A DNA stretch of 64,000 bases from a virus. The position numbers and the translations under genes were made by a program. The notes under the pieces are model-generated. The model searched no databases. It was given only the letters and a program-made list of their open reading frames with translations, and was not told the origin of the DNA. Below are positions 5,282-28,317 of this stretch, piece by piece (position 1 is the first letter of the stretch; every line of letters begins with the position of its first letter). The stretch covers positions 96,001 to 160,000 of IMG/VR virus record IMGVR_UViG_3300035070_002905, one strand, 5' to 3'.

Positions 5282-5695
5282 ATGAGGACACGCCAGGGCT
5301 TTGTAAGCAACTCGTCGTCCTCTTCCTTCATCATCGTGACTCACTCAGAGAATATCCATCCGGATGTCGTGGGTGATGTCACGTGGTTCGATGAGGATAG
5401 AGTGCGTGAAGAGATTAAAGAGGTCTACGGATGGGATGTCGTAGATACGTTATACAACGAGTGGTTCGATAAGAATCCTCACCGAGAAGATCCACCCTCT
5501 ATGTGGGATAAGTGGTCTACCCTATCTGAAGAAGAGCAGTGGAAGCGCTTATTTAATATACCTGAAGCCCGCGAACTGTACGACTATATGATGGACGCAC
5601 TGGACGCCGGGGACTTTGTAGCTGAAGTCGAGATGGACTATAACGACCCGAGCGAACCCATCCGACAACACCATGAAATTATTAAGGAATACTAA
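5282..5695 (+). CDS. GFVSNSSSSSF-motif protein, copy 4
   Basis: Identical 16-aa N-terminus; AGGAG RBS. Confidence 0.85.
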   Translation: MRTRQGFVSNSSSSSFIIVTHSENIHPDVVGDVTWFDEDRVREEIKEVYGWDVVDTLYNEWFDKNPHREDPPSMWDKWSTLSEEEQWKRLFNIPEARELYDYMMDALDAGDFVAEVEMDYNDPSEPIRQHHEIIKEY

Positions 5696-6882
5696 TGATT
5701 AATCCAAAGAAACACATCCTACCTGAAGCAATGCTGAAAAACTGTGAAGTATTCTACTCTGGCCACGGCGTGACCATCTACCAGGCAGGCGAGTGGCGCT
5801 TCGCCCGTTCTGAAGCGTACAACTACGACTACAACACGGTAGACGGCTTCTTCCGTCGCTGGGGTGCCACGCTAGACGAAGACCCTACCTTCGCACCACT
5901 TAACGAGATCCTCGACATCGAGGTGACCACCATTTGTAACGGTCCGGCTAACCGTCTGTGTTCCTTCTGTTACAAAAACAATAACCCTAACGGCTACAAC
6001 ATGCCACTGGCAGACTTCCAGGCGGTAATCGATAAGATGCCCTGGTTGACTCAGTGTGCACTAGGCGCCGATGCTCAGGGTACAACCAACCCCGACCTCA
6101 TCCCGATGATGCAGTACGCACGCAGTAAGGGTATCATCCCGAACCTGACGATCGCCGATGTAAGCGAGGAGGTTGCCGAGCAGCTAGCTTCAGTCGCCGG
6201 AGCTGTAGCTGTGTCTGTGTACCGACATGCAGGCTACGACGTCGCGTATGACTCTGTGAAGCGTCTAACCGACGCAGGCATGACTCAGGTCAACTTACAC
6301 TTCATGATCTCTCAGAGAACGTTAGAGGACGCCTATGAGGTATGTCGAGCCATTAAAGAAGATCCTCGTCTTGCTAATGTCAACGCCGTCGTATTTCTCA
6401 GCCTTAAACAGAAAGGCCGTGGACAGCGACACGAGTACGTTACTGAGACTGAATACAAGGAACTGGTGGATCACTGTCTGGCAGAAGGCATTCCCTTTGG
6501 CTTTGACAGCTGTTCTGCTCCTATATTTCTGGGCGCAGTTCGTGAGCATCCATCGTATGATCGTTTCCGCGAAATGGCAGAAGACTGTGAGTCAACCCTC
6601 TTCAGTTCATACATCAACGAACACGGACACTTCTTCCCTTGCTCCTTTACCGAGAAGTGGGTCGAAGGTGGATGGCTAGAAGGCATCGACGTGCTGGCTG
6701 CCGATGACTTCGTGACCGACGTATGGAATCACCAGCGTACCTGCGACTTTAAAGACGTCCTACGCGATAACACCGATGACCTTGGCTGTCGTCAGTGCCC
6801 GGCGTACGATGTGTGCGGTCGTCCGACTCGAGTGTACGATAGTGAAGTAGAAATTGTTGACTTGACTAGCTACAAGCGATAA
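5695..6882 (+). CDS. radical SAM protein with SPASM/twitch-like C-terminal domain
   Basis: DIEVTTICNGPANRLCSFCY (CX7CX2C variant of CX3CX2C); C-terminal C...YINEHGHFFPCSF...CRQCPAYDVC. Confidence 0.85.
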   Translation: MINPKKHILPEAMLKNCEVFYSGHGVTIYQAGEWRFARSEAYNYDYNTVDGFFRRWGATLDEDPTFAPLNEILDIEVTTICNGPANRLCSFCYKNNNPNGYNMPLADFQAVIDKMPWLTQCALGADAQGTTNPDLIPMMQYARSKGIIPNLTIADVSEEVAEQLASVAGAVAVSVYRHAGYDVAYDSVKRLTDAGMTQVNLHFMISQRTLEDAYEVCRAIKEDPRLANVNAVVFLSLKQKGRGQRHEYVTETEYKELVDHCLAEGIPFGFDSCSAPIFLGAVREHPSYDRFREMAEDCESTLFSSYINEHGHFFPCSFTEKWVEGGWLEGIDVLAADDFVTDVWNHQRTCDFKDVLRDNTDDLGCRQCPAYDVCGRPTRVYDSEVEIVDLTSYKR

Positions 6883-6906: not shown

Positions 6907-7467
6907 ATGGCTACACATGAAATAACCTATGATACTGCAGACAATGCCGCTCGAGCCCTCAACACTATGAAGTGGTATAACCGAGACGGTAAGTTCTCTC
7001 GGAAGGGTACTACTGCAATGTTCGACATGCCCGACTCGCGTCCACTGCACGATCACGTAAGTGGTCATCCTCATCATGCTCTACAGTTCTGCGAGTTCGT
7101 CTCCCGATGTCGGATTCCAGAACTAGAGCCAACTATCCTATGCGACCCTGGCATTGCAGCACGATATGCTAAGAGTATCCTGAAGTCTACCTGGCCGGAA
7201 GCAGAGGATAAGATCTTCTCTAGCATCCACGCTATTACCTACTACCTAGAGGTACCGGGCGTTGATATAGATAGATGTAAGGCTGCAGTCATAGCAGAGG
7301 TAAACAGAGGCAGTGAGAGTAGCTACTGGAATGCGTACAACTACTGGGCGATCATCAGTCGTATCAAACAGGCCTGGCCTGAGGTTGAACCTGTACTGAA
7401 GCTGAACCCGTCTATCTGGGCGCAGTACCAAAGGTTATTACCTACATGGAATTCAACAAATTCCTAA
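6907..7467 (+). CDS. hypothetical helical-repeat protein (two WPExE repeats)
   Basis: AAGGAGG RBS; ILKSTWPEAE and IKQAWPEVE repeats. Confidence 0.7.
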   Translation: MATHEITYDTADNAARALNTMKWYNRDGKFSRKGTTAMFDMPDSRPLHDHVSGHPHHALQFCEFVSRCRIPELEPTILCDPGIAARYAKSILKSTWPEAEDKIFSSIHAITYYLEVPGVDIDRCKAAVIAEVNRGSESSYWNAYNYWAIISRIKQAWPEVEPVLKLNPSIWAQYQRLLPTWNSTNS

Positions 7468-7506
7468 AACCTGCTATAAATAAAGTGTAAGGAGTTATAC
7501 ACTCCT
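7452..7506 (+). promoter_or_regulatory. putative phage promoter (TTCAACA-N14-GCTATAA plus downstream hairpin)
   Basis: TTCAACA 7452-7458, GCTATAAATAA from 7473, hairpin AGGAGT-TATAC-ACTCCT 7490-7506; motif recurs six times in the window. Confidence 0.7.
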
Positions 7507-7513
7507 GCGGAAA

Positions 7514-7569
7514 TTCAACATTCTAGTTATTTCCGTTATAATTAAGTTGTAAGGTAAACTACACCTTAC
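7514..7569 (+). promoter_or_regulatory. putative phage promoter, tandem second copy
   Basis: TTCAACA 7514-7520, GTTATAATTAA from 7535, hairpin GTAAGGT-AAACTAC-ACCTTAC 7549-7569. Confidence 0.7.
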
Positions 7570-7638
7570 TCGGAGCAAGTGCTCCAACAGGATTAGCAAT
7601 AGCGATCCTGCAAAATGTCAACTATAGGAATCTGACAT

Positions 7639-8739
7639 ATGACTACTAAGATCATCATCCCTGGCCGTGAAGCACAAACTCTAACTGGCATGACTATGGA
7701 CGTAGAGCAAGTTAAAGCAGCTTACGCTGGTCAAATTGATCTTTCTGCGTATAACGTCGACACTCAAGTTGTTGATGGCGAAACAGTAATCACATTCTCA
7801 AACCGCACTGGTACAAAAGGAACTGACATGCAGGTAATTAACGAAGCAGGCTCTAACCCGGTATTCACTACTATCATCATTCCGGGCCGTGAAGCTCAAA
7901 CTATTCCAGGCATGGCGCTTGGCGTAGACGATGTAGTAGCAGCATTCGCCGGTCAAATCGATCTGAAGAACTACGAGTCTCAAGTGGCTCAAGAAGAAAC
8001 AGGTCCAGTAATCACATTCGCAAACCGTACAGGCACAAAAGGAAATGGCATGCAAGTAATCAACGAAGCAGGTTCTAACCCAGTATTCACAACTATCATC
8101 ATCCCAGGTCGTGAAGCACAAACGATCCCTGGTATGGCGCTAGGCGTGGACGACGTGGTTGCCGCTTTCGCTGGTCAAATCGACCTTAAGAACTACGAGT
8201 CTTCAGTTGCTACTGAAGATACTGGTCCAGTGATCACCTTCAGCAACCGTACTGGTACTAAAGGTAATGACCTGTTCGACGTGCTTTCACAGATGATGGC
8301 ATCTCCTACTACGGTAGAAGAAGAGCCGGCTGCTCCAGCTGGTCCTACTGGTACTAAGATCCTGATCCCAGGCCGTGAAGCTCAGGTAATCCCTGGTATG
8401 CTGATGGACGCTGAGCAAGTTAAAGGTGCTTACGCTGGTCAGATCGATCTATCTGCTTACAACGTTGACGTTAGCGTTGACGGTGACTTCCAGGTAGTGA
8501 CGTTCACTAACCGCACTGGTACTAAAGGTGCTGTCCTAGACGACAGCGCTGCACTTAAGCACACTAAGATCGTGATCCCTGGTCGTGAAGCTCAGGTGAT
8601 CAGCAACATGGTACTTGACGCTTCTGGCGTTAAAGCTGCTTACGCTGGTCAGATCGATCTATCTGCGTACAACGTAGAAGAAACTGAAGACGGTGACACG
8701 TTAGTAGTAACGTTCTCTAACCGTACAGGTACTAAAGGC
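7639..8739 (+). repeat. five intragenic Ubl repeats: 7639-7821, 7822-8043, 8044-8265, 8266-8529, 8530-8739
   Basis: Each unit ends in the codons for NRTGTKG; units 2 and 3 are 74 aa each and near-identical in protein but synonymously diverged. Confidence 0.95.
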
Positions 8740-8745
8740 GCTTAA
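7639..8745 (+). CDS. poly-ubiquitin-like precursor: five tandem prokaryotic Ubl (PRTRC protein C / Prok-Ub-like) domains
   Basis: Five ~60-aa units IIPGREAQ...AGQIDL..Y...TF.NRTGTKG; GTKG is the C-terminal signature of PRTRC protein C; E2, JAB and E1 genes follow. Confidence 0.85.
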   Translation: MTTKIIIPGREAQTLTGMTMDVEQVKAAYAGQIDLSAYNVDTQVVDGETVITFSNRTGTKGTDMQVINEAGSNPVFTTIIIPGREAQTIPGMALGVDDVVAAFAGQIDLKNYESQVAQEETGPVITFANRTGTKGNGMQVINEAGSNPVFTTIIIPGREAQTIPGMALGVDDVVAAFAGQIDLKNYESSVATEDTGPVITFSNRTGTKGNDLFDVLSQMMASPTTVEEEPAAPAGPTGTKILIPGREAQVIPGMLMDAEQVKGAYAGQIDLSAYNVDVSVDGDFQVVTFTNRTGTKGAVLDDSAALKHTKIVIPGREAQVISNMVLDASGVKAAYAGQIDLSAYNVEETEDGDTLVVTFSNRTGTKGA

Positions 8746-8760
8746 GCCTTAGGTATTCTG

Positions 8761-8791
8761 GAAGGCGCCCCTCCGGCGCCTTTCTTTTTTT
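8761..8791 (+). terminator. Rho-independent terminator after the poly-Ubl gene
   Basis: AAGGCGCC-CCTCC-GGCGCCTT followed by a T-rich run. Confidence 0.85.
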
Positions 8792-8809
8792 GCTAATCCA
8801 GGAGTAACC

Positions 8810-9409
8810 ATGGACTATCCACAACCAAGTGACGTACAGAAGCAGATCAATGATGCTATCGTAGCCTGTCTAGATAATAACATCATCCGTTCTCTGGAAG
8901 ACATCCTGGAGCCGATTATCGGTGAGCAGAAAGGAGTCTTCAATGGTTCAATCAAATATCGTGGCGATATCAGCGATGCACAGATGCTGGTTAAACAGTA
9001 TGTAGGCATGATGCCTCTACAACAGATCTGCGGTCGTATCCTCCACGACGATACAATCATCCGCCTATGGAAGGGCGAGAGCTGTGTGGTAACTGAATCC
9101 CTGATGAACACTACATTCGTTCGTCGTGGTGAAGATCACCTCAAGCTTATCTTGGTCACCGTAAATGACCCGGCTACAGTAGACTACGTGAGTAATCTAG
9201 ACTGTGCGTACAACATCGAGCTAAATGAAATGCCGGAAGGCCGCCTTGGTATTGAGCTGCAAGTTCCAGTCAGCACTACCAACGCCGATCACTACTTCCA
9301 ATTCCTACAGCGTCTACCAGCTATCCTAGACGTATACTACACTCTACTGACGAGGTTCCCTACATGTCAAATCTCTTCGATCAATTTTCCGGACTTTCTG
9401 AATTCGTAG
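8810..9409 (+). CDS. hypothetical protein in the Ubl-conjugation operon
   Basis: 199 aa; AGGAG RBS; no motif recognised. Confidence 0.75.
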   Translation: MDYPQPSDVQKQINDAIVACLDNNIIRSLEDILEPIIGEQKGVFNGSIKYRGDISDAQMLVKQYVGMMPLQQICGRILHDDTIIRLWKGESCVVTESLMNTTFVRRGEDHLKLILVTVNDPATVDYVSNLDCAYNIELNEMPEGRLGIELQVPVSTTNADHYFQFLQRLPAILDVYYTLLTRFPTCQISSINFPDFLNS

Positions 9410-9648
9410 ATCTGCGTCACGAGTCGTATATGTCTCTGAACAATCTACTAGAAGGCCTTCGTAGCTTCAACGGCACACCTTCAGAAGCTCTTGAGATGGT
9501 TACTACAAGTAACTGGCAAGAAGGGCTTAACGAATACCAGCGACAGCAACAGCGTGTTCGTAACGGTAACCAACAAACGATCCGCGCTATGCAGCAGATC
9601 ACTTTCCGCGACTGTAAACCTGTAATGAGAGGAATCATCTATGTCTAG
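9364..9648 (+). CDS. small hypothetical protein in the Ubl operon (alternative start 9430)
   Basis: Fills the gap between 8810-9409 and the E2 gene; 8-nt overlap with E2. Confidence 0.55.
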   Translation: MSNLFDQFSGLSEFVDLRHESYMSLNNLLEGLRSFNGTPSEALEMVTTSNWQEGLNEYQRQQQRVRNGNQQTIRAMQQITFRDCKPVMRGIIYV

Positions 9649-10333
9649 TCATATCGACGCTCGTATCCACGCAGAAGGCTACGTATCTATCAGTAACGAA
9701 GCTGGTGCAAACAAGAACATCTCGATCCCTGACTTCTTGCGTAAGATCAACCAGCTTGAGCAGGAGAATGGCAACCAGACTCAGGAAGTAGGCGAGGCGT
9801 ATACTTACCCGTCGTCTATCCACTCGGTCCAGCGTACCACTGATGGTTTCATTGTAAGCCTGTACTTCAACGAGCGTGAAGCTAACATACGTCACTCGTA
9901 CGGTGAAAGCTACCTGATCACTGTACCTAACGTAATGATCCGTCTGGAGCTACGTAAGGTTAACGGCGAAGAGCGCTACTCGATTGTAGATGCACGCTTC
10001 TACGCTACCGATAAGAACCGCATCAGCTTGCCTACGGTATTCCCTAGCGAGCCACGCAGTCAAGAACATATCTGGGCACTACCATTCCCTAATATGTATT
10101 CCGAAGGTAACATGTGCTACGGCGGTAACAGCATGCCTAGCGTAATCTACCGTGATTGGACTGTACTAGACTCTGTCTACCAGACTCTGATCATCGATGC
10201 ATCATGTAACAACGACTTGAACGTACCGTCAGTTAACGATGGTCCGTCTAATGGCGACGACTGGTTACAAGTCCTAGCCGACCACCACTCTCGCGGTGAT
10301 GGTTTCCCTTACACTCGTCTATACAACTACTAG
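9641..10333 (+). CDS. E2-like (UBC-fold) conjugating enzyme, Prok-E2 family D / PRTRC protein B-like
   Basis: ALPFPNMYSEGNMCYG matches the P-F-x-N-x-Y-x-x-G-x-x-C-x-G catalytic-Cys motif; operon context. Confidence 0.8.
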   Translation: MSSHIDARIHAEGYVSISNEAGANKNISIPDFLRKINQLEQENGNQTQEVGEAYTYPSSIHSVQRTTDGFIVSLYFNEREANIRHSYGESYLITVPNVMIRLELRKVNGEERYSIVDARFYATDKNRISLPTVFPSEPRSQEHIWALPFPNMYSEGNMCYGGNSMPSVIYRDWTVLDSVYQTLIIDASCNNDLNVPSVNDGPSNGDDWLQVLADHHSRGDGFPYTRLYNY

Positions 10334-10345
10334 GAATATACTACC

Positions 10346-11479
10346 ATGGCAATGATTATTAACCCGATTACTACAGCATTCATGACAGCAGCCGAGTACG
10401 ATTCAGGTGAATTCGCTCGCTTCCCATTCAAGTACATCCTTGAAGAGAACGGCTCGATCATGTACCACACACAACTAAGTGCAGGTCGCTTCGTCTGCAT
10501 GGAAGAAGCTAAGATCAAAGGCCTGGCGGTCAACAAGACGACTAAGCCTCGTGAAGCAATCTTGCAACATCTACCTAACGGTGGTCAACGCGTTCCTGAA
10601 GAGTTCTTCTGGCAGATCCGCCAGTTCTTCCTTGACGTAATGGGTATGGGCCCGTCTACATATGAAGCTCAGGTCTTCGTACTGTGGAACGAGCATACTC
10701 AAGAGTATCGAATCATGGTCCCTAAGCAAACTGTATCAGCAGCAGCGGTACGTTATGACATTCAAGATCAGCTAGGTGAAGGCGACCACATCATTATGGA
10801 TATCCACAGCCATAACGATATGGGTGCGTTCTTCTCGGGAACCGATGACCGTGACGATGCGAAGAACTGCTGGATCTCTGGCGTGTTCGGTAAGCTCTCT
10901 ACTAACCTAGAGTACCGCTTCCGCTTCAACGATGGCACCGGCCACCACTACGAGCTGGCTAAAGGTGATATCTTCACGGTACCCGCAGCACAGTCTCAAG
11001 AGACTCCGCAGGCTTGGATCGACCAGGTTGAAATCCAGACGTACTCGAGCACTCGGTATCAAGGATACAATCGTCAGCCTTATCAAAGCGGTAACTACGG
11101 CGGTTGGCCGAATAGGAACCGCAATGCAGTAGAGACTCAGGACTACCCTGGCTGGGGCGATTCATGGGATGACGATACTACGGGACTTTTTAGCGAGGCG
11201 TCAGACCTGGACGCCTTCTTAAACGGGTCTACATTCTCGGAAGATGATGCATACAGCGAGTTCTATGATACACTGGTTGACTGCCTGTCTACGTTAGACC
11301 CTAAAGAGAGCGTTAACGTTCTTAAAGAGTTCATTAGCTGGATCGACAACCCTGCTCATGAGGCTGAAACTACTGATCGTGAATGGGACTCCTATAGCGA
11401 CGTGACGTATTACTACAGCCTATTTAAAGTAACACCTGAAATGGGTAAAGCTGTCGCACAGGACGTAATGGGAGCTTAA
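10346..11479 (+). CDS. JAB/MPN+ metallopeptidase (deubiquitinase-like; PRTRC protein A-like) with a low-complexity C-terminal extension
   Basis: YEAQVFV (catalytic Glu), VPKQTVSAAAVRY, DIHSHNDMGAFFSGTDDRDD (HxH-x7-S-x2-D). Confidence 0.9.
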   Translation: MAMIINPITTAFMTAAEYDSGEFARFPFKYILEENGSIMYHTQLSAGRFVCMEEAKIKGLAVNKTTKPREAILQHLPNGGQRVPEEFFWQIRQFFLDVMGMGPSTYEAQVFVLWNEHTQEYRIMVPKQTVSAAAVRYDIQDQLGEGDHIIMDIHSHNDMGAFFSGTDDRDDAKNCWISGVFGKLSTNLEYRFRFNDGTGHHYELAKGDIFTVPAAQSQETPQAWIDQVEIQTYSSTRYQGYNRQPYQSGNYGGWPNRNRNAVETQDYPGWGDSWDDDTTGLFSEASDLDAFLNGSTFSEDDAYSEFYDTLVDCLSTLDPKESVNVLKEFISWIDNPAHEAETTDREWDSYSDVTYYYSLFKVTPEMGKAVAQDVMGA

Positions 11480-12025
11480 ATGGAATTAGAACTGACACAG
11501 GGATGTGTCACTCTTATTGATGATGAAGATGCCGACCTTGTGTCGGCTCACAAGTGGTATCCTTTATACGTACCAAGTAGAGATAAATACATGGTGATAC
11601 GTAATAGGAAGATGGTGAACTACGAGAGGAGTGGTACTAGGTATCTGCATACCTTCCTACTGCCTGTTAAAGATGGATATTCTGTAGATCATATAAACAG
11701 GGATCCTCTAGATAACCGACGTAGTAATTTACGAGTAGCTAATAAGCAGCAGCAGCAGCTTAACACTGGACCTCGCAGGAATTCACCTATCCCGTATAAA
11801 GGAGTATCTTATAAGAAGACTAATAGCAATTACGTAGCTCAGATGTATGCACATGGTAGGAATATACATATAGGATCATTCGATTCTCCTACTGATGCAG
11901 CATTGGCGTATGATGAATACTCATTAGACTATTGGTCTAACATCCCCGACGATCCTATCTCAGGGTCGTATACACAATTCCTATATTTAAACTTTCCGGA
12001 GAAACACAATGGCACTATTGCGTAA
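11480..12025 (+). CDS. HNH homing endonuclease with C-terminal AP2 domain
   Basis: VDHINRDPLDNRRSNLR (HNH); YKGVS...YVAQ...HIGSF...AALAYD (AP2); visibly more AT-rich than its flanks. Confidence 0.9.
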   Translation: MELELTQGCVTLIDDEDADLVSAHKWYPLYVPSRDKYMVIRNRKMVNYERSGTRYLHTFLLPVKDGYSVDHINRDPLDNRRSNLRVANKQQQQLNTGPRRNSPIPYKGVSYKKTNSNYVAQMYAHGRNIHIGSFDSPTDAALAYDEYSLDYWSNIPDDPISGSYTQFLYLNFPEKHNGTIA

Positions 12026-13025
12026 ATTTGATTTACTTTTGCAGGACGTTATCGTCGTGGGTTGTGGTGGTACAGGTTCACGTACAATCCCTATGATCGT
12101 GCAGCTGTTGAAGACTGCTCCTGCAGCGATCGGTCCCGCGCTATACCTAGTGGATGGTGATGAGGTTGAGGCTAAGAACCTTGCCCGTCAGAACTTCATC
12201 GAGCCTGATATCGGTCGTAACAAGGCGGTTGTACTAGCTGAGCGCTACGGCCAGGCTATGGACTTCCCTGTACATGCACATCCGCAGTTCGTTACGGACG
12301 GCGGTAACATCGTGGGTGACATTAACCGATCGGCTAGCTCTAACGACTTCCGTCAGCTAGGCCAGATGCGTAAGATCTGGATCCTTGCAGTAGATAGCAT
12401 CAAGGCTCGTATGATGGTACTTCAACAGGCCGGTCACAACGATGTAATCATCGATGCCGGTAATGAAGATACATTCGGTCAGGTGAGCATCTACGATAAC
12501 ATCCACCTAGAGTGCCTCCAGGGCGACTCTACGCCGGAGTTAGGTCCCTTCCAAGGGGATTACGCACTGCCGTTCATTCCGTCGCCCCTGACGTCGTACA
12601 TCGCCGCTGTGATCAATCCTCCGGTTGCTACCGGTTCGTGTGCAGATCTAGATCAGTCTCTAGCGATCAACAATATGATGTCTGCGGGCATCGTTGGTAT
12701 GCTGCAGAACCTGATCTACAACAACGAGTTCTATACCTGTACTAACTCGTACGACCTGCACCGCGGTAACCAGTCGACTTCAATGAACCACCTCTGGTTC
12801 AACGAGACGATGGGCCGTCAGCGCTTCGAGAAGCAGGAGTTCGGTCGTCTTGGCGATGATCTACCTAACCGTCTGTACGATCACCTGTCTAGCCACTCTC
12901 AGAACTTCCTGATGGCGAAGAACATGGAGACTCGTCGTGGTTCAATGGTACATGAACTGCTTTGCGATATCCGCTCTAAGACTACTGCCGTAGATCCAGC
13001 CGTCCTGGCTGCTCTAAAGCTATAA
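12009..13025 (+). CDS. ThiF/E1-like activating enzyme (PRTRC ThiF-like)
   Basis: VVGCGGTG; DGDEVEAKNLARQNF...GRNKA; AVDS; DAGNE; putative catalytic GSCADLDQSLAIN. Confidence 0.92.
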   Translation: MALLRKFDLLLQDVIVVGCGGTGSRTIPMIVQLLKTAPAAIGPALYLVDGDEVEAKNLARQNFIEPDIGRNKAVVLAERYGQAMDFPVHAHPQFVTDGGNIVGDINRSASSNDFRQLGQMRKIWILAVDSIKARMMVLQQAGHNDVIIDAGNEDTFGQVSIYDNIHLECLQGDSTPELGPFQGDYALPFIPSPLTSYIAAVINPPVATGSCADLDQSLAINNMMSAGIVGMLQNLIYNNEFYTCTNSYDLHRGNQSTSMNHLWFNETMGRQRFEKQEFGRLGDDLPNRLYDHLSSHSQNFLMAKNMETRRGSMVHELLCDIRSKTTAVDPAVLAALKL

Positions 13026-13026
13026 C

Positions 13027-13058
13027 AAAAAGGCCAGCTCCGTGAGGGGCTGGCCTTT
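13027..13058. terminator. bidirectional terminator between the convergent Ubl operon and virion module
   Basis: AAAAAGGCCAGCTCC-GTGA-GGGGCTGGCCTTT. Confidence 0.85.
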
Positions 13059-13910: not shown

Positions 13911-16900
13911 TTACCAGTACATGCTCACTGACACTGCATCATCCGTTAGAGTACCTGCTGCGTCTTTAACGTCAACGAATACTTCACCTAGAGTGATCGT
14001 GTAGTTACATGAACGTACTGCACCTGTTGCAGACCTAGCAGTTGCTATAACTGTAGTGGAATCGTCTAGAACCGGTCCAGCAGGAGCTATAGAGTACTGA
14101 CCTGCCTGAACCCGGGTAACAGCGACGGCGTCTGTAAAGTTACCGTGACGACCGTCGATAGCACCTGTATTACTCAGAGTCATGTGCAGTGCATTACCAG
14201 TCGAGGTGTTCTCGTTATGGTTGATGACCGTCTTACCGCCCTCTACGGCCCAGACATTGCCACGAGGTGAGGCAGTCTGCGTGAACGTCATCTCTTTCTG
14301 AGGGAATACCTGCAGAGAAGGCGTACCGCCGAACAGCTGGTTATCACCTACTTCACCCGATACCGTAGCCACTTCAGATGAACCATTCACGATCGTAAAC
14401 GTATTACCGAAGTCGTATAGACCTTTAGGTATGCGTACAGTCACCGGAGCGTTAACGTTCGGGATGTTGTAGCGAAGTCCCGTACGGATAGACTGCCTGT
14501 CCATCGTCACGTCGGTAGATGCCGCAGCAATCGTGTACGTAGTGATAGACTGAATAGACATGTCATTCACGGCGTTACCCGGTGGAGTGTAGAAGAACGT
14601 ACCGCGGTCAGTTGTACCACCGCCGGCGTAAGTTACTTCACCTACCTTCACACCATCAACGTGGATGTCACACGTGTCTTCGCCAGGAGAGTTGATCATA
14701 CTGATCAGATACATTGTATCACGTTCTAGATCGAACGTAGTGTTACCACCAGAGTTGATCATAGTAATCTGTAGCTGACCACTCGATACTGTAACGTTAT
14801 ACTCGAAACGTCCGTTAGAACCCCAAGAGGTGTTGTTCGGTTCGATATCCACCCAGATCTGACCATCGTGAGCTGCTCCGAACATAGCTCGTAAATCTGT
14901 ACGGAAGCCGTTAGCACGACAGGTATCCCAGAATGCCTGAGTATTATTAGGCGCTTGCAGTGTAATTGTACCACCGGTCTGAGTACAGCGGATCACTTCA
15001 GGGAATCCTGCGTGATTCTCTGTATTTACCCAGCGGACGTTGTTACTACCTGTCCAACCCGAGTCGGCTAGGGTATTGCCCTCTGCGAAGAAGAACTGAC
15101 CTACCGGCTCACCTGAAGCGATACGCGTAGTAGTCACGTAAGACCAGTCCGATCCATCGTACCAGATAGGTCGATTATCGGCCAGGCCATTCAACGCCAG
15201 AGAACCTGTAGGATGTCCAGTATTCTGCGGGATGATACGAGGTAGAAGTGTACCACGTAACGGTGAATCCTGCTGTACTACCACATTCTTCTCTAGGTCA
15301 GGCTCGTTAATGATAACGTGCATGTCGTAGTCGTATAGGTATACTGCTTGGTTAGTACCAGTCGAACGCTTACGTAGTGTAAGAACTGTATCGCCTGCAC
15401 CGGTAGCGAACTCATATTCGAACTCATACGTATCACCTACGTTGTTATTAGCTGCAGGGATCGTTAGCTCAGCTACCTGCGTACCCGTACTATCCACCAG
15501 TTCGAAGTCCTGCGTAGTACCACCTGAAGAAGTACTGATACCGAATCTCAAGTAGATTTTGATACGTTGGAATAGACAGTCGCGGAAAGTGATCTGCGTA
15601 CCGCCGGAGCCTGCTGTATTGTATCGAATACCAAAGTGAGTACCGCCACTGACGATAGGCATTAGTTCTCGTACCGAACCACCGGTATCAGCGCCGTTCA
15701 TAGTGATCGTCGATGCCGGGTTAAGACTAGTATCGTCGACCTCTGGACGCTTATCTGCTACTAGATCCGTCCAGTAGTTCGTATCGATAGGCCAATCGGT
15801 CTTGTTATTAGCTATCCAAGTACCATATTCACCTGCACTCATACGAGTACCGTGGCTTGCATACTTACCTATGATAACGTCGTCGGCATGGATATCTACC
15901 TGTGAATTGGTAGAGAAGTCGATGTACGCAGTGTTAGGGCCGTGCTCACCGATAGATGAACATGCTATACCTCCAGACGTTCCATCTACTATATCACGAT
16001 CAGACCACTCATCCGTACTAATAGTAGAGACTACTACTTCTGTACCTGTAGGAGTATATAGGGTAGGAGTACCGAATACTACACCTGAGGCGTAAGGCAG
16101 TGGAATGATACTAGACATCAACCCTTCGTACGTCTTGGATGGGTCTATTCTAATCTGTAATCGTATAGAGTCTACTGTATCGGCAGAATCTCGAATCATT
16201 CGGTACTGAGTACCTCCACCGATATCCCCTGTCTGTACCAGACCTAGGATACGGAAGGTAGTCGTAGACGTTCCATCGGGAACTCCACGTACCATGTTCA
16301 TGTTAATACGGTTAGTGATTACTGTATCGCCGCCCGATTGAATGAACAGGATAAAGTCAGCACCTGAAGTGTCTACCGTACCTGCAGTAAGTGCTGGCCA
16401 AGTAATCAAGTCGTACCAACCTATGCCACCTGCACCTAGATCAGTAAACTGTGCATATGCGTGTTGGCTGCCGCCTGCCGGGATGTTCTTAATGAATGAC
16501 GCGTCTAGACGATCATCTGCAGTAAGAGTCTCCAGGGCATCACGTACACCTGCACCGGATGTGTAGATCGTATCGGCTACAAACCCGTATGGATTGTACG
16601 TAGTTGTAGGGTTCAGAGTAACACCTACTGAATCATGGATGATCTCTATATGTGCATCACCGACACCACCTGTATCTAGGAATGTACCAGTTAGATAATC
16701 TTCGATGCGCAGGTAAGATGCTGCGAAGGCACTGTTACCGATTACAATATCACCAGCTACTTGTCCGAAGTTGTAGTGACTACCATTAGATAGTGTTATG
16801 TTACCTACCAGTGCTCCGATGTGCATCTCACAACGTGCAGCTGTGGAGTTACTTACGTTACCTGTAAGTGTAGCGTAAGGCAGTTCGAAGTCTAAGGGCG

Positions 16901-17651
16901 TAAATGGAGCGATGTTCTCTGTAAACGTAGACGCATCTTGACATTTAATAACGCGCTTACTTGTCGTAGGGAACGCAGAAGCTAGAGTAACCGCTTGCGC
17001 GATAGTCAGTACCGGCTGTTCCGGAGAACGACCATCGGCATTATCATCACCGCTAGCTGATACGTATACCATCTGTGCACTATCGATAAAGTCGATAGCT
17101 TCTGCACCTAGACGATCTGCGTCCGTAAGAGTCTCTAGCTTATCACGGATAGTACTAGCATCATCTTTAACTAGTAGAGAAGAAGGTTCTACCGGTCCGA
17201 ATACTACCTCTTCATCTGTCATTGGAGTCCAGACAGTTAAGTTCTCGGGGATGGTAGTTGTATCGCCTGCAGGATTCCTTGCAACTGATAGGTCTACATT
17301 CATAGACGACAGTGCAGCAGTAGCCTGAACTTGTAGATGTACAGGTGATCGTAGATCATTAGAATCTTCACGTAGAAGACGTACCATATCTACTGCAGGC
17401 ACATTAGAGTCTGTTGCGTGCGTTAGGATGCCCCATTTTACAGGTGCGTTACCTAGGTTACCTTGTATTGTGAAATCAAAGTAAGTGAACTCGCCTGCTT
17501 TAGACATGTCCAGCGTTACCCTCTCTGAGAAGCTGCCACTACCGGTGACGGTAGCGATAGTCAGCCAGTCGTTATTCGTTCGGGTCTGTCCTACTAGATT
17601 AACGGAGGTGAACGACTTATCCCCTACTGGGATTATATTTGCTATTGACAT
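13911..17651 (-). CDS. tail fibre / receptor-binding protein (1246 aa)
   Basis: Thr/Gly/Ser-rich beta-type sequence; VYVSASGDDNADGRSPEQPVLTI (motif that precedes beta-helix domains); shares the RDxLExLTxxxRLDAS module with the neighbour; gp37-like C-terminus VTRVQAGQY. Confidence 0.7.
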   Translation of the reverse strand: MSIANIIPVGDKSFTSVNLVGQTRTNNDWLTIATVTGSGSFSERVTLDMSKAGEFTYFDFTIQGNLGNAPVKWGILTHATDSNVPAVDMVRLLREDSNDLRSPVHLQVQATAALSSMNVDLSVARNPAGDTTTIPENLTVWTPMTDEEVVFGPVEPSSLLVKDDASTIRDKLETLTDADRLGAEAIDFIDSAQMVYVSASGDDNADGRSPEQPVLTIAQAVTLASAFPTTSKRVIKCQDASTFTENIAPFTPLDFELPYATLTGNVSNSTAARCEMHIGALVGNITLSNGSHYNFGQVAGDIVIGNSAFAASYLRIEDYLTGTFLDTGGVGDAHIEIIHDSVGVTLNPTTTYNPYGFVADTIYTSGAGVRDALETLTADDRLDASFIKNIPAGGSQHAYAQFTDLGAGGIGWYDLITWPALTAGTVDTSGADFILFIQSGGDTVITNRINMNMVRGVPDGTSTTTFRILGLVQTGDIGGGTQYRMIRDSADTVDSIRLQIRIDPSKTYEGLMSSIIPLPYASGVVFGTPTLYTPTGTEVVVSTISTDEWSDRDIVDGTSGGIACSSIGEHGPNTAYIDFSTNSQVDIHADDVIIGKYASHGTRMSAGEYGTWIANNKTDWPIDTNYWTDLVADKRPEVDDTSLNPASTITMNGADTGGSVRELMPIVSGGTHFGIRYNTAGSGGTQITFRDCLFQRIKIYLRFGISTSSGGTTQDFELVDSTGTQVAELTIPAANNNVGDTYEFEYEFATGAGDTVLTLRKRSTGTNQAVYLYDYDMHVIINEPDLEKNVVVQQDSPLRGTLLPRIIPQNTGHPTGSLALNGLADNRPIWYDGSDWSYVTTTRIASGEPVGQFFFAEGNTLADSGWTGSNNVRWVNTENHAGFPEVIRCTQTGGTITLQAPNNTQAFWDTCRANGFRTDLRAMFGAAHDGQIWVDIEPNNTSWGSNGRFEYNVTVSSGQLQITMINSGGNTTFDLERDTMYLISMINSPGEDTCDIHVDGVKVGEVTYAGGGTTDRGTFFYTPPGNAVNDMSIQSITTYTIAAASTDVTMDRQSIRTGLRYNIPNVNAPVTVRIPKGLYDFGNTFTIVNGSSEVATVSGEVGDNQLFGGTPSLQVFPQKEMTFTQTASPRGNVWAVEGGKTVINHNENTSTGNALHMTLSNTGAIDGRHGNFTDAVAVTRVQAGQYSIAPAGPVLDDSTTVIATARSATGAVRSCNYTITLGEVFVDVKDAAGTLTDDAVSVSMYW

Positions 17652-17689
17652 TTTGTCTCCTAAATAGGGGCCGGAGCCCCCTTTATTTA

Positions 17690-20600
17690 CTAGATAAGAT
17701 ACGGTTGGCCTATGCCGATAAGAATCGTATCATCATCGATTACCTGGAATACCTCTTGGATCAAACCTGATACAGGCTGAGCCGAAGTAAATGTCCCTGC
17801 ACTGTTTAGCCAGTAGTACTGTCCGGTAGTATAGCCGTGTCCGGTAATCGTACAGATTCCGCTAGACTGTACTCGATAGGTACCGATGTCCACTACCTCA
17901 CATACAAAGCCGGTAGCCGGAGCCATAGACGATGCATCTGCCGGAGCCCAGTTAGCACCTGCACCTCTAGCTAGCAACTGCTGCTGAGTAAACGGATGGT
18001 TAGGGTGGACTACTGTAATGATATCAGTTGAAGCACCTTCGATAGCGCTAACGTTTAGACGCTCAGTACCAGTTAATGCCTCTAGCTTATCGCGAATCTG
18101 GATTCCAGTATCGCTGCCTACCGGCACGTCTGCATGAAACTTAATGTTAGTTACTGCAACTCGAGCGAATACGATGTGTAGATCGTTTGTTACCAGTCCA
18201 CCAGCTCCTGGAGTAGTCGAAACAGTCCAGTAAGTGGTGTCCGTATTAGTATGAGCTTCTGTACCAACTACTGGATCTATTTTAGTAGCACCACCACCCA
18301 CAGGGTTGCCTTCGTACACGCGGATATCACGATCAGTACCCGATGAGGTCACTTGACCGTATCGAATCTCTAGGACCATGTTATGTGTAAGGGCACCTGC
18401 CGGGACTACCAGCTCACATACATCCGCGGAGGCAGAAGTCTCATCGGCGAATACGTTAGTGAAAAAACCTGCACCGCTACCGAAACCAAGAGGGAAGCTA
18501 CGTCCTGCATCTCTACGGAATGATGCACTTACACCAAGGCCTTCGACCATGTCATCTGCTAGAGTGTTCAGTGGAATGCCGTTAGTAACTCCGAAATCCT
18601 CGAAGATCTTAAGGGCCGCACTACCGAATCCACTACCGCGGATATCAGATGCCATAAACGGAGCGTTAGATACTACCTGTAGATCGTAAACGCCTTGACG
18701 CTGTACTACTACGTGGTAATCATCGGTTGCAACCAGCGCACTATCTAGGTTCCAAACTACAGTCTGTAGAGCACCGTATACGTTAGACTCTTGACCGTAT
18801 ACCGGATCAACTACTACACCGCCTGATGTAGGATCACCTCGGTATACCCTGAAGTGCCTATCACCGGTAGCAGATCCACGTGCGAATCGCGCCTGTAAGA
18901 CCTTGCCTCGAGCTTCCTGTGCTGGAATTATGAATTCCGCTACTGCACCGTCTCCCGTTTCATCTACCGAGCTGTTAAGCCAGAACCACCACGAGCCTGC
19001 CGTTAATGAGGCAAACGGCATGATACGAGAGTTAGTATCTCTCCATGCAGTCCCTGGGACTAGAGTACGTTCAAGTAGCTCATCGCCCTGTGCCTTAGTA
19101 AGCGTAGTACCGGTAGGAATAGCATCACGTACCGCAATCTCACGAAATACGTTCTGGAACGTACCTGTACCATCTATATTCAAGTTCTGAATAGCAGATG
19201 AATCCAGGCGATCTGTACCTGTTAATGCCTCTAGTTCATCCCGAATCTGTGTACCAGTAGACTGGCCAAGAGATGTATGGAACTCTACGTCAAGTAGAAT
19301 CTGACGTCCTAGGTATACGTAGATGTCAGCTGAGTTAGCTGGGACCTGGTAAGTTACCGCATGAGCAGTAGCACCGCTGTTCGTACCGACTACCGGTAGA
19401 ATCTCTGTACCTGAAGCTGTAGCATCACCGTTGAATACACGTAGTTCACGAGTCAGACCTGACACGATATCACTTATGAAGAACGTGATGTATGAACCGC
19501 CAGTTAGATCTTTACCAGTGAAGATTACCTCGCTGTACGCGTGACCTGCATCTGTAGGATCTTGTCCACCCGATGGTGCATATACACCCCACGAGTCAGC
19601 ATCGTCGTAGTATGCTAGTGCAGTACGAGCTGTAGTAACACCTACACCAAATGTGCGTAGGATCTCTGTAGACTGTGCTACCGATAGAGCCTCATCATCT
19701 GCAATAGAGTCACGGTCTGCGATCGTCTTAGCATGCTTAGCGTACTTACTGAATACATTCTGTACCGCCCAAGATTCTAGGCGATTAGCCTCTGCCACCG
19801 ATTCGATATCATCGATAAGCTCTAGTGGAGTAAACCCTAGACGATTGTTGATCGCCTGAAGAGATAGCTCTTCCCAGTCTGCCGCGTTGAATGCACCTGC
19901 AGTAACCGTAGCGATAGCCACGTAGTCACGTCCAAGGTGAGATACATAGGCGCCGATCGCATAGTTGTTCGCGATGTTAAACACGTTGTAAGCTGCCGCA
20001 CCACGTAGGGATACGATGTCACCTTCAACTGCTTCGATTCGGTTTTCGTTAGTGATTGCACTGACGATCTGCCACTCCGCAACATCCCATGCACCTGCTG
20101 CCACGCCTGTACGTGCTTTGTACAATCTGCTTAGGTAGATTACGTAGGTACCTGCAGTATACGTTGCAGTAGAATCAAAGTCTGCCGGACGAGCTGCCCC
20201 GCGTAACGCCTCGATGTCTACTTCAGCTGTATCGATACGACCTTCGTTATCTACAATCGAGATGACCTGCCATTCCGATGCGTCGAAGTTACCTGGAAGT
20301 ACTGCTGCAATAGCATGGTATAGACGGTTGCCGAATACACAGCTATCGTCGATTGCGTAAGTAGCCGTAGAGTCAAAGTCTGCCGCTACTGCCTGGCCGC
20401 GTAGCTGTTCGTGCGCATCGCTGATACCTACTGAAGTCTCTAGGACTAGCGCTGCGTTACTTAGAGTAGACGCTTCGTACCAGTTAGCTGCATCCCACGG
20501 TCCTGCCGTAAGATCTTCACGAGCGATGAACGTACGGTTATCTGCTGTACGATATACCGAGTCACCTGCAGAGTATGCCTGAGTAGCGCTGAATTCTGTC

Positions 20601-22357
20601 GGGCGGGCTCCGCCACGTAGTTCCAGACGTTCCGGCGCACCGGTATCGCTAGATAGCGGTAGGTTAGTGTGCACTGCGATGTTGTTAACTGTTACTCGAG
20701 AGAAAACGATATGCAAATCAGTAGTTACTGCGCCATCATTCTCTGGAGTAGTCGAAACATTCCAGTAGGTCGTAGCCGCACCTGTATGCGCTTCAGTACC
20801 CTCTATAGGTGTCAACTTGGTTACGCCAGTCGTAGGATCTCCTGGGTATACACGAACATCACGTTCTGTACCGCCAGTAGTAACTTGACCATAGGTAACT
20901 TCTAAGACTTGGTTATGTGAAAGTCGGCTCGCAGGAATCACTAGTTCACATACGTCTGCCGTAGCTGCAGTCTCATCGCCGAACGAAGCCGAGAATAGAC
21001 CGGCACCATTGCCGAACATCCTAGGGTATTGACGTCCTGCGGTAGTACGGAATTCCGCACCGATACCCATACCTTGAACTATATCGTTAGCGTGAGTACC
21101 TAGTAGCTCTCCGTTGACTAGACCTGTTTGTTGGTTAACTAGCGCAGCAGCTTCTGAAAAGGATGCACCCTTAAGAGCGGCCATGTGATATGCTGAGTTA
21201 TCCACTAGTTGTAGATCGAAGATACCTTGACGCTGTACGATGATATGGATATCGCCAGCAACGCCGTCCGGGCGCTCTAGATCCCATACTGTAGTAGCCT
21301 GGCTACCGCGAAGAACGAACTCGTTACCTAGAATAGGGTCGATTTCCACACCTAGGTTAACCGGGTTGCCGTCGTATACGCGGAACATTCGAGTTCCAAT
21401 AGTTGACGAACGAGTGAACCTAGCAGTTAACGCCTTGCCACGTACTGATTCTGCAGGAAGTACTAATTCTATACACGCTCCGGCACCAGTCTCATCTATC
21501 TCACTGTTTCTCCACAGCATGAAGCTGTTATTAGACTGAGATACGATCGGCATGATACGTGAGTTATCAGTAGCCCAGAACGCATCGATACCTAGAGTAC
21601 GTCGAACAATCTCATCGGCTTGTGCTTTAGTTAACGTAGCACCTGAGGTAAGACCATCACGTACGAAGATCTCTTCTACTACCGGCTGGAATGCAGCATC
21701 GCCGTCGAGATTAAGATTCTGGATAGCTGATGCATCTAAGCGAGCAGTACCAGTAAGTTCTTCCAGACGATCACGGATTGTAGTACCGCGTGCGTTGTTA
21801 CGTACAGACAGTTCCTGCCATCGTGCCGTATTGAAGGCTTCCGGCGTAGTTACTGGATCGATACACAGGTATTCACGGGCAGACGTAGTCTCCCATACCG
21901 TAGCACCGAGTACGTACGTAGATGAAGCACTGTAGTCTGCCGAACGAGCTGCGCCGCGTAGCGCTACGATCTCTTCCGGTAGAACGCTAAGTGCTTCTAC
22001 TCGAGTGTTAATAGACTCTAGCGATAGATCCTGCCATTTAGCCGAGTCGAATGCTTCTGCCACGGTAACCGCAGTAGTACAGACATAGTGTACTGAGTTA
22101 AAGGTTACTAGATCATCTAGTGCGTATGTTGCGGTGGCATCATACAGTGAAGCAGAGTTGCTCCCGATGACGCTGTGTACGGTTGATTGTAGGAATCGTC
22201 CGTTAGAGAGAGTGATCTCGCCACCCGTACCATTACATAGGTACGATAGACCGGTCTCAGTGATAAACGTGAATTCGCCTAGCCTAATCGGTAGGGCAAT
22301 CGCTGCCGCTACAGTATCTGCCTGTAGACGTCTCACTTGTTGTTGGTTATAGCTCAC
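17690..22357 (-). CDS. tail fibre-like protein (1555 aa) with six CBM5/12-like repeats and an internal ~380-aa duplication
   Basis: Repeats F/Y-x5-Y-x2-G/D-x2-V...Y...W; duplicated module at ~20640-21780 and ~18105-19246; GTG start with AGGAG RBS. Confidence 0.75.
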   Translation of the reverse strand: MSYNQQQVRRLQADTVAAAIALPIRLGEFTFITETGLSYLCNGTGGEITLSNGRFLQSTVHSVIGSNSASLYDATATYALDDLVTFNSVHYVCTTAVTVAEAFDSAKWQDLSLESINTRVEALSVLPEEIVALRGAARSADYSASSTYVLGATVWETTSAREYLCIDPVTTPEAFNTARWQELSVRNNARGTTIRDRLEELTGTARLDASAIQNLNLDGDAAFQPVVEEIFVRDGLTSGATLTKAQADEIVRRTLGIDAFWATDNSRIMPIVSQSNNSFMLWRNSEIDETGAGACIELVLPAESVRGKALTARFTRSSTIGTRMFRVYDGNPVNLGVEIDPILGNEFVLRGSQATTVWDLERPDGVAGDIHIIVQRQGIFDLQLVDNSAYHMAALKGASFSEAAALVNQQTGLVNGELLGTHANDIVQGMGIGAEFRTTAGRQYPRMFGNGAGLFSASFGDETAATADVCELVIPASRLSHNQVLEVTYGQVTTGGTERDVRVYPGDPTTGVTKLTPIEGTEAHTGAATTYWNVSTTPENDGAVTTDLHIVFSRVTVNNIAVHTNLPLSSDTGAPERLELRGGARPTEFSATQAYSAGDSVYRTADNRTFIAREDLTAGPWDAANWYEASTLSNAALVLETSVGISDAHEQLRGQAVAADFDSTATYAIDDSCVFGNRLYHAIAAVLPGNFDASEWQVISIVDNEGRIDTAEVDIEALRGAARPADFDSTATYTAGTYVIYLSRLYKARTGVAAGAWDVAEWQIVSAITNENRIEAVEGDIVSLRGAAAYNVFNIANNYAIGAYVSHLGRDYVAIATVTAGAFNAADWEELSLQAINNRLGFTPLELIDDIESVAEANRLESWAVQNVFSKYAKHAKTIADRDSIADDEALSVAQSTEILRTFGVGVTTARTALAYYDDADSWGVYAPSGGQDPTDAGHAYSEVIFTGKDLTGGSYITFFISDIVSGLTRELRVFNGDATASGTEILPVVGTNSGATAHAVTYQVPANSADIYVYLGRQILLDVEFHTSLGQSTGTQIRDELEALTGTDRLDSSAIQNLNIDGTGTFQNVFREIAVRDAIPTGTTLTKAQGDELLERTLVPGTAWRDTNSRIMPFASLTAGSWWFWLNSSVDETGDGAVAEFIIPAQEARGKVLQARFARGSATGDRHFRVYRGDPTSGGVVVDPVYGQESNVYGALQTVVWNLDSALVATDDYHVVVQRQGVYDLQVVSNAPFMASDIRGSGFGSAALKIFEDFGVTNGIPLNTLADDMVEGLGVSASFRRDAGRSFPLGFGSGAGFFTNVFADETSASADVCELVVPAGALTHNMVLEIRYGQVTSSGTDRDIRVYEGNPVGGGATKIDPVVGTEAHTNTDTTYWTVSTTPGAGGLVTNDLHIVFARVAVTNIKFHADVPVGSDTGIQIRDKLEALTGTERLNVSAIEGASTDIITVVHPNHPFTQQQLLARGAGANWAPADASSMAPATGFVCEVVDIGTYRVQSSGICTITGHGYTTGQYYWLNSAGTFTSAQPVSGLIQEVFQVIDDDTILIGIGQPYLI

Positions 22358-22407
22358 AGTAATCTCCTATCTATGGTACGCATGCGCGCTAATTAATGTG
22401 CTTACGT

Positions 22408-22415
22408 ATATTTTA
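22408..22415 (-). promoter_or_regulatory. putative late promoter element TAAAATAT
   Basis: Same 8-mer lies upstream of minus-strand genes at 28852, 40468 and 52195; variants at 59073 and 63112(+). Confidence 0.55.
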
Positions 22416-22418
22416 GAC

Positions 22419-22444: not shown

Positions 22445-22445
22445 A

Positions 22446-27445: not shown

Positions 27446-27454
27446 CGTATTCTC

Positions 27455-28306: not shown

Positions 28307-28317
28307 ATAATGCTCCT

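Follow-up and report, generated by a model that had tools for sequence, protein, structure and literature searches.

Ubiquitin-like (Ubl) conjugation in bacteria (type II CBASS, Bil and Bub) has so far been studied as a defence against phages; what is the whole machinery doing in a virus? The question is raised by a stretch of 64,000 nucleotides (nt), here called the window, which comprises bases 96,001–160,000 of the single-contig, 172,110-bp virus record IMGVR_UViG_3300035070_002905 (CheckV completeness 95%). On its plus strand, seven closely packed open reading frames (ORFs) form a single unit at 7452–13058, as judged from the ORF list. The original prediction, made from the letters of this DNA, had described one co-oriented ubiquitination operon, and this was borne out: every feature that it listed was found where it had been placed. 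All the genes that it named (a poly-Ubl, two ORFs of no known family, E2, JAB and E1) are present, but it had overlooked a seventh, a homing endonuclease with HNH_3 and AP2 domains. We consider it very probable that the JAB peptidase processes a polyubiquitin-like precursor and that the released tag is then relayed from Cys211 of the E1 to Cys159 of the E2 and onto lysines of target proteins. What our analysis establishes is which genes are present and how they are laid out, together with their motifs, their conservation and the folds predicted for them. The genes, with the two candidate catalytic cysteines, are:

7639–8745, plus strand: poly-Ubl precursor, 368 amino acids (ORF, Prok_Ub match with E = 2.3e-5, AlphaFold2 model)
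8810–9409, plus strand: X, 199 amino acids, lineage-specific, with a conserved QQxxGxxLxD and a C-terminal LLTRFPxCQ...LPxFxNS
9364–9648, plus strand: Y, 94 amino acids, lineage-specific, with its start 46 nt inside X and its own conserved GAGG ribosome-binding site
9641–10333, plus strand: E2-like conjugating enzyme, 230 amino acids (Prok-E2_D match with E = 5.8e-4, UBC-like model)
10115–10117, plus strand: candidate catalytic Cys159 of the E2, within LPFPN-x7-C-x-G
10346–11479, plus strand: JAB/JAMM metallopeptidase, 377 amino acids (Prok-JAB, E = 3e-10; PRTRC_A, E = 8e-21)
11480–12025, plus strand: HNH–AP2 homing endonuclease, 181 amino acids (HNH_3, E = 1.9e-9; AP2, E = 7.2e-7; PHROG 99, E = 2.1e-30)
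12009–13025, plus strand: ThiF-type E1, 338 amino acids, with a single adenylation domain (ThiF, E = 1.7e-13; PRTRC_ThiF, E = 1.2e-20)
12639–12641, plus strand: candidate catalytic Cys211 of the E1, in a GSCA motif

The matches to the Pfam families Prok_Ub, Prok-E2_D, Prok-JAB and ThiF come from profile searches that the original prediction had called for. The order Ubl–X–Y–E2–JAB–E1 recurs in Vibrio phages D69, D148 and D181, in Salmonella phage Arash, in three IMG/VR contigs and in several metagenome contigs; in our collection of loci, the six-gene order was found in D69, Arash, L003–L010 and L047. The E1s of D69, D181 and D148 are 60% identical to that of the window by tblastn, and the E1 of Arash 33%. 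A megablast search with the cassette against deposited phages gave zero matches.

The first gene encodes the tag as a polyprotein. Five Ubl-like domains had been predicted, and there are five units, each with an NRTGTKG end, followed by one alanine and the stop codon:

7639–7821, plus strand: Ubl unit 1
7822–8043, plus strand: Ubl unit 2
8044–8265, plus strand: Ubl unit 3
8266–8529, plus strand: Ubl unit 4
8530–8739, plus strand: Ubl unit 5
8740–8742, plus strand: alanine cap, then the stop codon at 8743–8745

The cores of about 60 residues are 57–70% identical to unit 1. Units 2–5 are preceded by linkers of 13–27 residues, so that these units, once released, would carry N-terminal extensions. 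Units 2 and 3 arose by a recent duplication of 222 nt, a period that TRF found to span both. The score of the Prok_Ub match was 24.5 bits against a cut-off of 25. The AlphaFold2 model of unit 1, built from an alignment of 21 rows of phage and bacterial units, had a predicted local distance difference test score (pLDDT) of 88.6 and the element order beta-beta-alpha-beta-beta. The Foldseek list for this model consisted mostly of beta-grasp proteins (the B1 domains of proteins L and G, ubiquitin, NEDD8, MoaD), and an exhaustive VIA search returned MoaD, ThiS-like, ubiquitin-fold, SUMO, Urm1 and ISG15 chains, and also GB1, with Z-scores of 3.4–5.3 over 50–60 of the 61 residues. The beta-grasp fold, on which the original prediction had staked its reading of the repeats, is the fold predicted by the model and its neighbours, at modest Z-scores.

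The number of units is one, three or five in the relatives, and the F...G-x-K-G end is invariant. Arash and the IMG/VR relatives have a single Ubl with the stop directly after ...KG, the D69-like phages have three units, and the window phage and the 98%-identical L047 have five. The residues after the last glycine vary from none to A, K, DA or INYSK; the three-unit relatives end in INYSK, K, DA or no cap. Bacterial PRTRC-C-type Ubls also end in R-x-G-T/A-K-G, with variable caps that are 3 to about 65 residues long. In a joint alignment of the phage units with such bacterial Ubls, F, G, K and G were invariant, and a hidden Markov model (HMM) of the phage Ubl retrieved Ubls from bacterial JAB–E1 loci. 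Such a pattern, in which the end never varies and the residues after it are arbitrary, would be expected if a peptidase exposed the glycine before activation. The Ubl gene of Arash (locus L002, OQ632216, 107–307; 66 amino acids ending in RTGTKG and a stop) is unannotated, and the deposited coding sequence gp251c (102–320 of the same locus) reads the same DNA in another frame.

The E2-like protein has a small N-terminal domain (residues 1–48). The intact GNMCYG cysteine noted in the original prediction is Cys159 and is invariant in the relatives; in an alignment of 19 rows, L147, P148, N151, C159 and G161 did not vary. The Asn-to-Cys spacing of eight, with a glycine three residues before the cysteine, is that of the HPN...G..C site of eukaryotic UBC enzymes. 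Homologues formed 16 clusters among 5.8 billion proteins, several of them with a precomputed PF14460 match. The AlphaFold2 model had a pLDDT of 79.8, and 19 of the 20 top VIA matches were ubiquitin-conjugating enzymes, with Z-scores of 4.5–5.7 and alignments of 113–131 residues within residues 47–230 of the model. A UBC-like fold is suggested by this match list, which is uniform, although the Z-scores are modest. An hhalign comparison of the E2 family with a single Ralstonia PRTRC-B was marginal (E = 0.004), with the active-site motif aligned. The phage E2s have an invariant N190-N191-D192 where the Ralstonia PRTRC-B has F-T-H-P.

The JAB protein is built of an N-terminal extension, a JAMM core and a variable acidic C-terminal tail, and its gene is the sole JAB gene in the whole genome. 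In the alignment of relatives, the JAMM residues E107, H154-S-H156, S164 and D167 are all invariant; the HSH-x7-S-x2-D signature that had been predicted as intact corresponds to H154, H156, S164 and D167. The E1 motifs named in the same prediction (GCGGTG, NLARQNF and GSCA with Cys211) are likewise present and invariant across the relatives, as are the GxGGTGSR glycine-rich loop including Arg25, D49, R60-Q61, N71-K72, D129 and DAGNE. Cys211 lies in a loop just ahead of a conserved Q..A.N helix and is kept in every phage and bacterial relative examined, canonical PRTRC ThiF included. The E1 family profile matches the adenylation domains of MccB, UBA3, UBA7 and UBA1; the N-terminal part of the protein also matches the ThiF and MoeB models of NCBIfam. 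In the relatives, JAB and E1 are immediate neighbours; in the window, the HNH insertion alone separates them. In D69 (L001, OZ195729, 6989–7975), the E1 is annotated from an internal methionine only, as a protein of 251 amino acids. The open frame extends from just past the stop of JAB and includes the whole GxGGTGSR N-terminus, with no ATG, GTG or TTG start, which suggests a non-canonical start or coupled translation.

Between the tag and the enzymes lie X and Y. They had been listed as two unknown ORFs and are still without a family or fold match: searches of both against Pfam, NCBIfam, PHROG and PADLOC gave zero matches, and their ESM Atlas models were of low confidence, with no usable match. 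The X family has only 29 same-family representatives among 1.84 billion proteins in a profile search. Both genes occur solely with this cassette, and the Y HMM finds phage loci only. X holds the position of PRTRC-F in the canonical Ralstonia cassette, and hhalign gave a probability of 0.2% for X against the Ralstonia PRTRC-F and no similarity between X and the E2 family. A programmed −1 frameshift fusion of X and Y, whose 46-nt overlap is conserved, was considered and dropped, as Y has its own GAGG and ATG and there is no slippery heptamer.

Which known system does the cassette resemble most closely? Iyer, Burroughs and Aravind (2006) described an 'operon type 6d' with a small Ubl ending in a C-terminal glycine, an alpha-helical protein of unknown function, a cysteine-containing E2-like protein with an absolutely conserved histidine downstream of the cysteine, a JAB that carries an N-terminal domain, and an E1 (PMC1779556). 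Judging by composition and gene order, we equate type 6d with the core of the PRTRC cassette of TIGRFAM (TIGR03734–03742), and the cassette of the window is a divergent, stripped-down relative of this family. It shares with the family a beta-grasp Ubl ending in R-x-G-T/A-K-G and frequently capped, an E2-like protein with a conserved cysteine, a JAB with an N-terminal extension, a single-domain ThiF-type E1 with the same cysteine, and the order Ubl, spacer gene, E2, JAB, E1. The original prediction that the gene set matches PRTRC holds for the Ubl, E2, JAB and ThiF components; the match is a distant one that falls short of the NCBIfam cut-offs, with no PRTRC-E, PRTRC-F or ParB. Of the NCBIfam models, PRTRC_A and PRTRC_ThiF matched clearly (74.5 bits against a cut-off of 101.8 and 73.9 against 144.75), and PRTRC_B and PRTRC_C weakly (13.9 against 131.45 and 15.2 against 45.95). 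A Ralstonia control cassette, with the canonical order ParB-E-C-F-B-A-ThiF, cleared all four cut-offs.

The differences are equally clear. PRTRC-E, PRTRC-F and PRTRC-D were absent from the cassette, and the upstream gene, X and Y had no NCBIfam match. X and Y stand in place of PRTRC-F, the phage E2 has N-N-D in place of the downstream histidine, and the Ubl is a polyprotein of three to five units in one subclade of the phage lineage. PRTRC cassettes are known from plasmids and integrative and conjugative elements, whereas this one belongs to the core genome of large lytic phages and has its own long-stemmed E1 group. ParB had been said not to be adjacent; TIGR03734 and PF02195 had no match anywhere in the 172-kb genome. 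No integrase was found in the genome either, and the absence of both agrees with the lytic-type phage of the original prediction.

Eukaryotic polyubiquitin genes (UBI4/UBB/UBC) encode head-to-tail units with one or more removable C-terminal extra residues, and their copy number varies between lineages. The tag gene of the window resembles them in its head-to-tail units, in the conserved glycine end of each unit and in its variable cap and copy number. It differs in that the units are 57–70% identical, are joined by linkers and end in KG rather than GG, and in that the predicted processing enzyme is a JAMM peptidase from the same operon.

We compared the cassette with other E1-containing systems as well. 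Bil and Bub are also Ubl, E2, peptidase and E1 operons without an E3, and their Ubls are known to have one to three beta-grasp domains (PMC11601596, PMC11601603); in contrast to the cassette, they are host defence systems, and their Ubls have been described as multi-domain architectures and not as capped precursors with a glycine end on each unit. Identity with Bil (BilABCD) was rejected: the E1 of the window has 338 amino acids, one adenylation domain and its cysteine before the Q..A.N helix, and the architecture of the Bil E1 differs (PMC11601596). Bub was rejected as well; it forms Ser/Tyr oxyesters and has a DUF6527 protease, whereas the cassette has an invariant cysteine in both E1 and E2 and a JAB peptidase. 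A type II CBASS was discarded in view of the separate E1 and E2 genes, which are not fused, and of the Pfam and NCBIfam results for the cassette and the two genes upstream, which contain no cyclase. Against the Cap2-type E1–E2 models of PADLOC, the E1 matched over residues ~7–135 only (E = 2.5e-7 at best). A ThiS/MoaD sulfur carrier was rejected on the KG end, the presence of E2 and JAB, and the lack of a rhodanese and of Thi or Moa genes in the cassette.

Two further phages encode E2-like, JAB and ThiF proteins in the same order, namely Ralstonia phage Dina and the Bacillus jumbo phage vB_BceM_WH1. Dina has a complete canonical PRTRC cassette (E, C, F, B, A, ThiF; L045, 2832–7184), which groups with the chromosomal PRTRC of Ralstonia, and its Ubl extends about 65 residues past GRKG. 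RefSeq already annotates PRTRC genes in this phage, so that phage PRTRC is not unprecedented at the level of annotation. The E2-like, JAB and ThiF genes of vB_BceM_WH1 (L046, 3114–6208), annotated as hypothetical save ThiF, group with loci of Bacillota and Saccharibacteria. The nine E1s from the window's phage lineage form, in the E1 tree, one group with 100/100 support and a long stem, apart from Ralstonia PRTRC with Dina, the Chloroflexota loci, vB_BceM_WH1 and the other bacterial and archaeal E1s. The cassettes of Dina and vB_BceM_WH1, being separate in this tree, are independent acquisitions. A search with the portal protein gave four close cultured relatives and no others, D69, D181, D148 and Arash, each of which has the cassette; beyond them there were only distant matches at 20–22% identity, to Bacillus phage G (in two records) and to one uncultured phage. 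Since the E1s form a single group and all cultured portal relatives carry the cassette, we regard it as an old, vertically inherited core module.

The unit also has a conspicuous layout of putative control elements:

7471–7494, plus strand: promoter-like motif P1 (CTGCTATAAATAAAGTGTAAGGAG), 0 mismatches, with a TGn-extended −10-like box and a short hairpin after it
7533–7556, plus strand: promoter-like motif P2, a tandem copy that differs at 3 positions and has a stable 5' hairpin after it (z = −3.6)
8760–8794, plus strand: intrinsic terminator or attenuator after the Ubl gene, a 10-bp GC-rich stem with a U-tract (−19.9 kcal/mol)
13029–13058, plus strand: closing terminator hairpin with a 13-bp stem (−25.6 kcal/mol, z = −4.7), which also serves the convergent minus-strand genes

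The two promoters of the original prediction are two tandem copies of this motif, and their promoter function is our interpretation; a scan for sigma-70-type promoters found TCAACA-16-TATAAT at 7515–7542. A fuzzy search for the 24-nt motif (consensus about YTGYTATAAKTAAWRTGTARGG) found 10 copies in the genome and 0–1 in shuffled sequences. Nine copies are on the plus strand before plus-strand blocks without recognisable virion genes, and one weak copy is on the minus strand near 163.5 kb. In whole-genome coordinates (G000:C1), the motif search placed it at 6805, 33025, 42416, 103471, 103533, 155108, 155849, 162136 and 163920. The cassette had been assigned to the promoter class of the early genes. 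The shared class stands, as the motif otherwise occurs almost only before plus-strand non-structural blocks; 'early' is suggested by that distribution only. A reading of TATAAATA as T4-type late promoters was rejected, since it has only 7 copies in the genome and the real repeat is the longer 24-nt motif.

The terminator after the tag gene is shared by most of the lineage. A hairpin with a U-tract follows the Ubl gene in L006, L007, L009, D69, Arash and L005 with differing stem sequences, that is, in six of seven relatives, and L003 alone has no clear one. Together with the expansion of the repeats, this terminator implies selection for far more tag than enzyme, and such an excess fits a modifier that is consumed stoichiometrically.

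The phage also encodes split multisubunit RNA polymerase genes of the beta and beta' type (49929–51755 and 52373–56932 of the window, minus strand), which lie within the structural block and adjoin the portal gene (57208–59028). The RNA polymerase's beta subunit is the one detected most abundantly among the proteins in preparations of Arash virions, which suggests a virion-packaged polymerase as in phiKZ-like phages. In view of the split polymerase genes and of the Arash virion data, either the host or a virion polymerase could read the 24-nt motif.

How might the system work? We infer the chemical steps, the timing of expression and the targets as follows. Transcription would start at the two tandem promoters, which belong to the same class as those of the phage's non-structural gene blocks. 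With a terminator after the first gene, most transcripts would carry the tag only, and five copies per polypeptide would add to the excess of Ubl. The JAB peptidase would cut after each ...RTGTKG, removing the alanine cap and giving monomers with a free C-terminal glycine. The E1 would adenylate this glycine and then hold the Ubl on Cys211 as a thioester, from which the tag would move to Cys159 of the E2 and on to lysines of target proteins. The fast-evolving X or Y, or both, would probably be specificity factors or partners, and the JAB peptidase may also be able to reverse the conjugates.

Several results weigh against this scheme. Foldseek searches of the PDB gave nothing significant for the E2 model and no significant E-value for the Ubl model, a very small domain, and the structural Z-scores of both are modest, with a maximum of 5.7. 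The E2 lacks the canonical HPN histidine as well as the downstream histidine described for type 6d E2s. For PRTRC_B, PRTRC_C and Prok-E2_D, the scores fall short of the curated cut-offs, and neither a fold nor a family could be detected for X and Y. No E3 is recognisable, as the original prediction had already remarked, and no substrate either. Bub shows that bacterial relatives of E1 and E2 can have an unexpected oxyester chemistry (PMC11601596), and for this reason the thioester steps should not be assumed. In the literature, with subscription journals mostly outside the scope, we found no experimental study of PRTRC or type 6d; nor was there a paper on a phage-encoded PRTRC-type version.

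If the tag is conjugated, what does the phage gain from it? As the cassette is a core module and vertically inherited, it probably serves the phage's own infection cycle, by the tagging of abundant phage or host proteins, and is not an accessory. The chances are about even, in our estimation, that Ubl conjugation is a core step of infection in which a mass-made precursor tags such proteins and X and Y act as specificity factors of a new type. The same chemistry could instead serve in conflict, either as a defence or superinfection exclusion that tags proteins of rival phages or as a counter-defence that tags or saturates the Ubl-based immunity of the host, for instance Bil, Bub or type II CBASS. 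This is a real though distinctly less probable possibility. The characterised bacterial E1/E2/JAB systems do act in the conflict between phage and host, and Bil systems tag a phage tail protein (PMC11601596). X and Y show the fast evolution typical of conflict interfaces, and the promoter class is common to the non-structural blocks. However, accessory genes for defence or anti-defence are usually patchy among close relatives, whereas the cassette is present in all known relatives, in the same position and as a single group, at portal identities of 49–68% and E1 identities of 31–55%. PADLOC, moreover, had no model match save the weak E1 matches to Cap2, which cover the Rossmann part only.

Two further explanations dispense with conjugation altogether, and we regard both as very improbable. 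The Ubl could be a sulfur carrier of the ThiS/MoaD/Urm1 type, which the E1 adenylates to form a thiocarboxylate for the modification of a cofactor, tRNA or DNA. Such a role would suit the ThiF and MoeB matches in the N-terminal part of the E1, the MoaD and ThiS chains among the structural neighbours of the Ubl model, and a radical-SAM/SPASM gene 0.8 kb upstream; this gene, however, is outside the conserved cassette of the relatives. A conserved E2-like protein with an invariant cysteine and a conserved JAB both belong to the cassette as integral parts, its tag has a KG end and not GG, and searches of Pfam and NCBIfam found no rhodanese or sulfurtransferase domain on or beside the E1. Three to five copies of the tag per precursor, together with the attenuator, point to stoichiometric consumption rather than recycling. 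Alternatively, the JAB peptidase could free the Ubl as a non-conjugated assembly factor, in the manner of lambda and T1, whose tail-assembly Ubl protein TAPI has the JAB-containing partner TAPK, with E1 and E2 of the cassette vestigial or otherwise employed. Phage Ubl and JAB pairs have been described in tail assembly (Iyer et al., 2006, PMC1779556), the cassette abuts a tail/baseplate module, and GenBank labels the E1 and E2 of Arash as 'structural protein' from virion mass spectrometry. That label is weak evidence, since the 'virion' proteome of Arash comprises 116 proteins, including ribonucleotide reductase and RNA ligases; the Gp numbers of the Arash paper also map poorly onto the GenBank tags. 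The promoter class is that of non-structural blocks. Throughout the lineage, E1 and E2 have kept their catalytic residues without exception, which means that these enzymes are not vestigial.

Processing of a precursor followed by conjugation to lysines is the reading that we prefer, and it would give the cassette a wider meaning. Bioinformatically, the PRTRC or type 6d family has been known since its prediction in 2006. Here it forms a core module, and the lineage that carries it has cultured members and hosts for the laboratory (Arash and the Vibrio phages D69, D148 and D181), so that both the function of the family and the phage's gain from tagging can be tested directly. On tagged targets, as the original prediction had pointed out, trypsin would leave a single glycine on the lysine, which is isobaric with carbamidomethyl; ArgC, which leaves TGTKG, is needed for this reason. 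The tag gene mirrors the logic of polyubiquitin in its repeats and variable cap, with a dedicated peptidase and a terminator that favours the tag, and is a striking case of convergent gene design. If tagging is indeed a core part of the infection cycle, this would be the first Ubl modification system run by a bacteriophage; the polyubiquitin gene design would have been invented independently, and the lineage would offer the first experimentally tractable entry into PRTRC or type 6d.

The seventh gene, the HNH–AP2 endonuclease, is an insertion between JAB and E1 and is not part of the conjugation machinery. It is absent from this site in D69, Arash, L003, L005, L006, L009 and L010 and present in the near-identical L047; in L007 and L008, a small ORF of 64 amino acids lies between JAB and E1. 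In L047, an additional gene, DUF723 (HNH-like), lies a short way upstream of the poly-Ubl (5282–5830); the window phage does not have it. It seems that the cassette's flanks are a repeated target of homing endonucleases.

Finally, we looked at the neighbouring genes. The radical-SAM gene upstream (5695–6882, plus strand; 395 amino acids) has weak Pfam matches to radical-SAM and SPASM and matches PHROG 7293, of unknown function, with E = 2.2e-175. Directly downstream of the cassette are three giant ORFs of 1246, 1555 and 1348 amino acids (13911–26492, minus strand) with almost no PHROG match. L047, otherwise near-identical, is without them at that position; there the cassette is followed by minus-strand genes of 138, 140 and 116 amino acids and then by the genes of 154, 161, 283 and 170 amino acids that occupy 26496–28830 in the window. 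The giant-ORF block is probably a swapped or inserted tail-fibre or host-range module.

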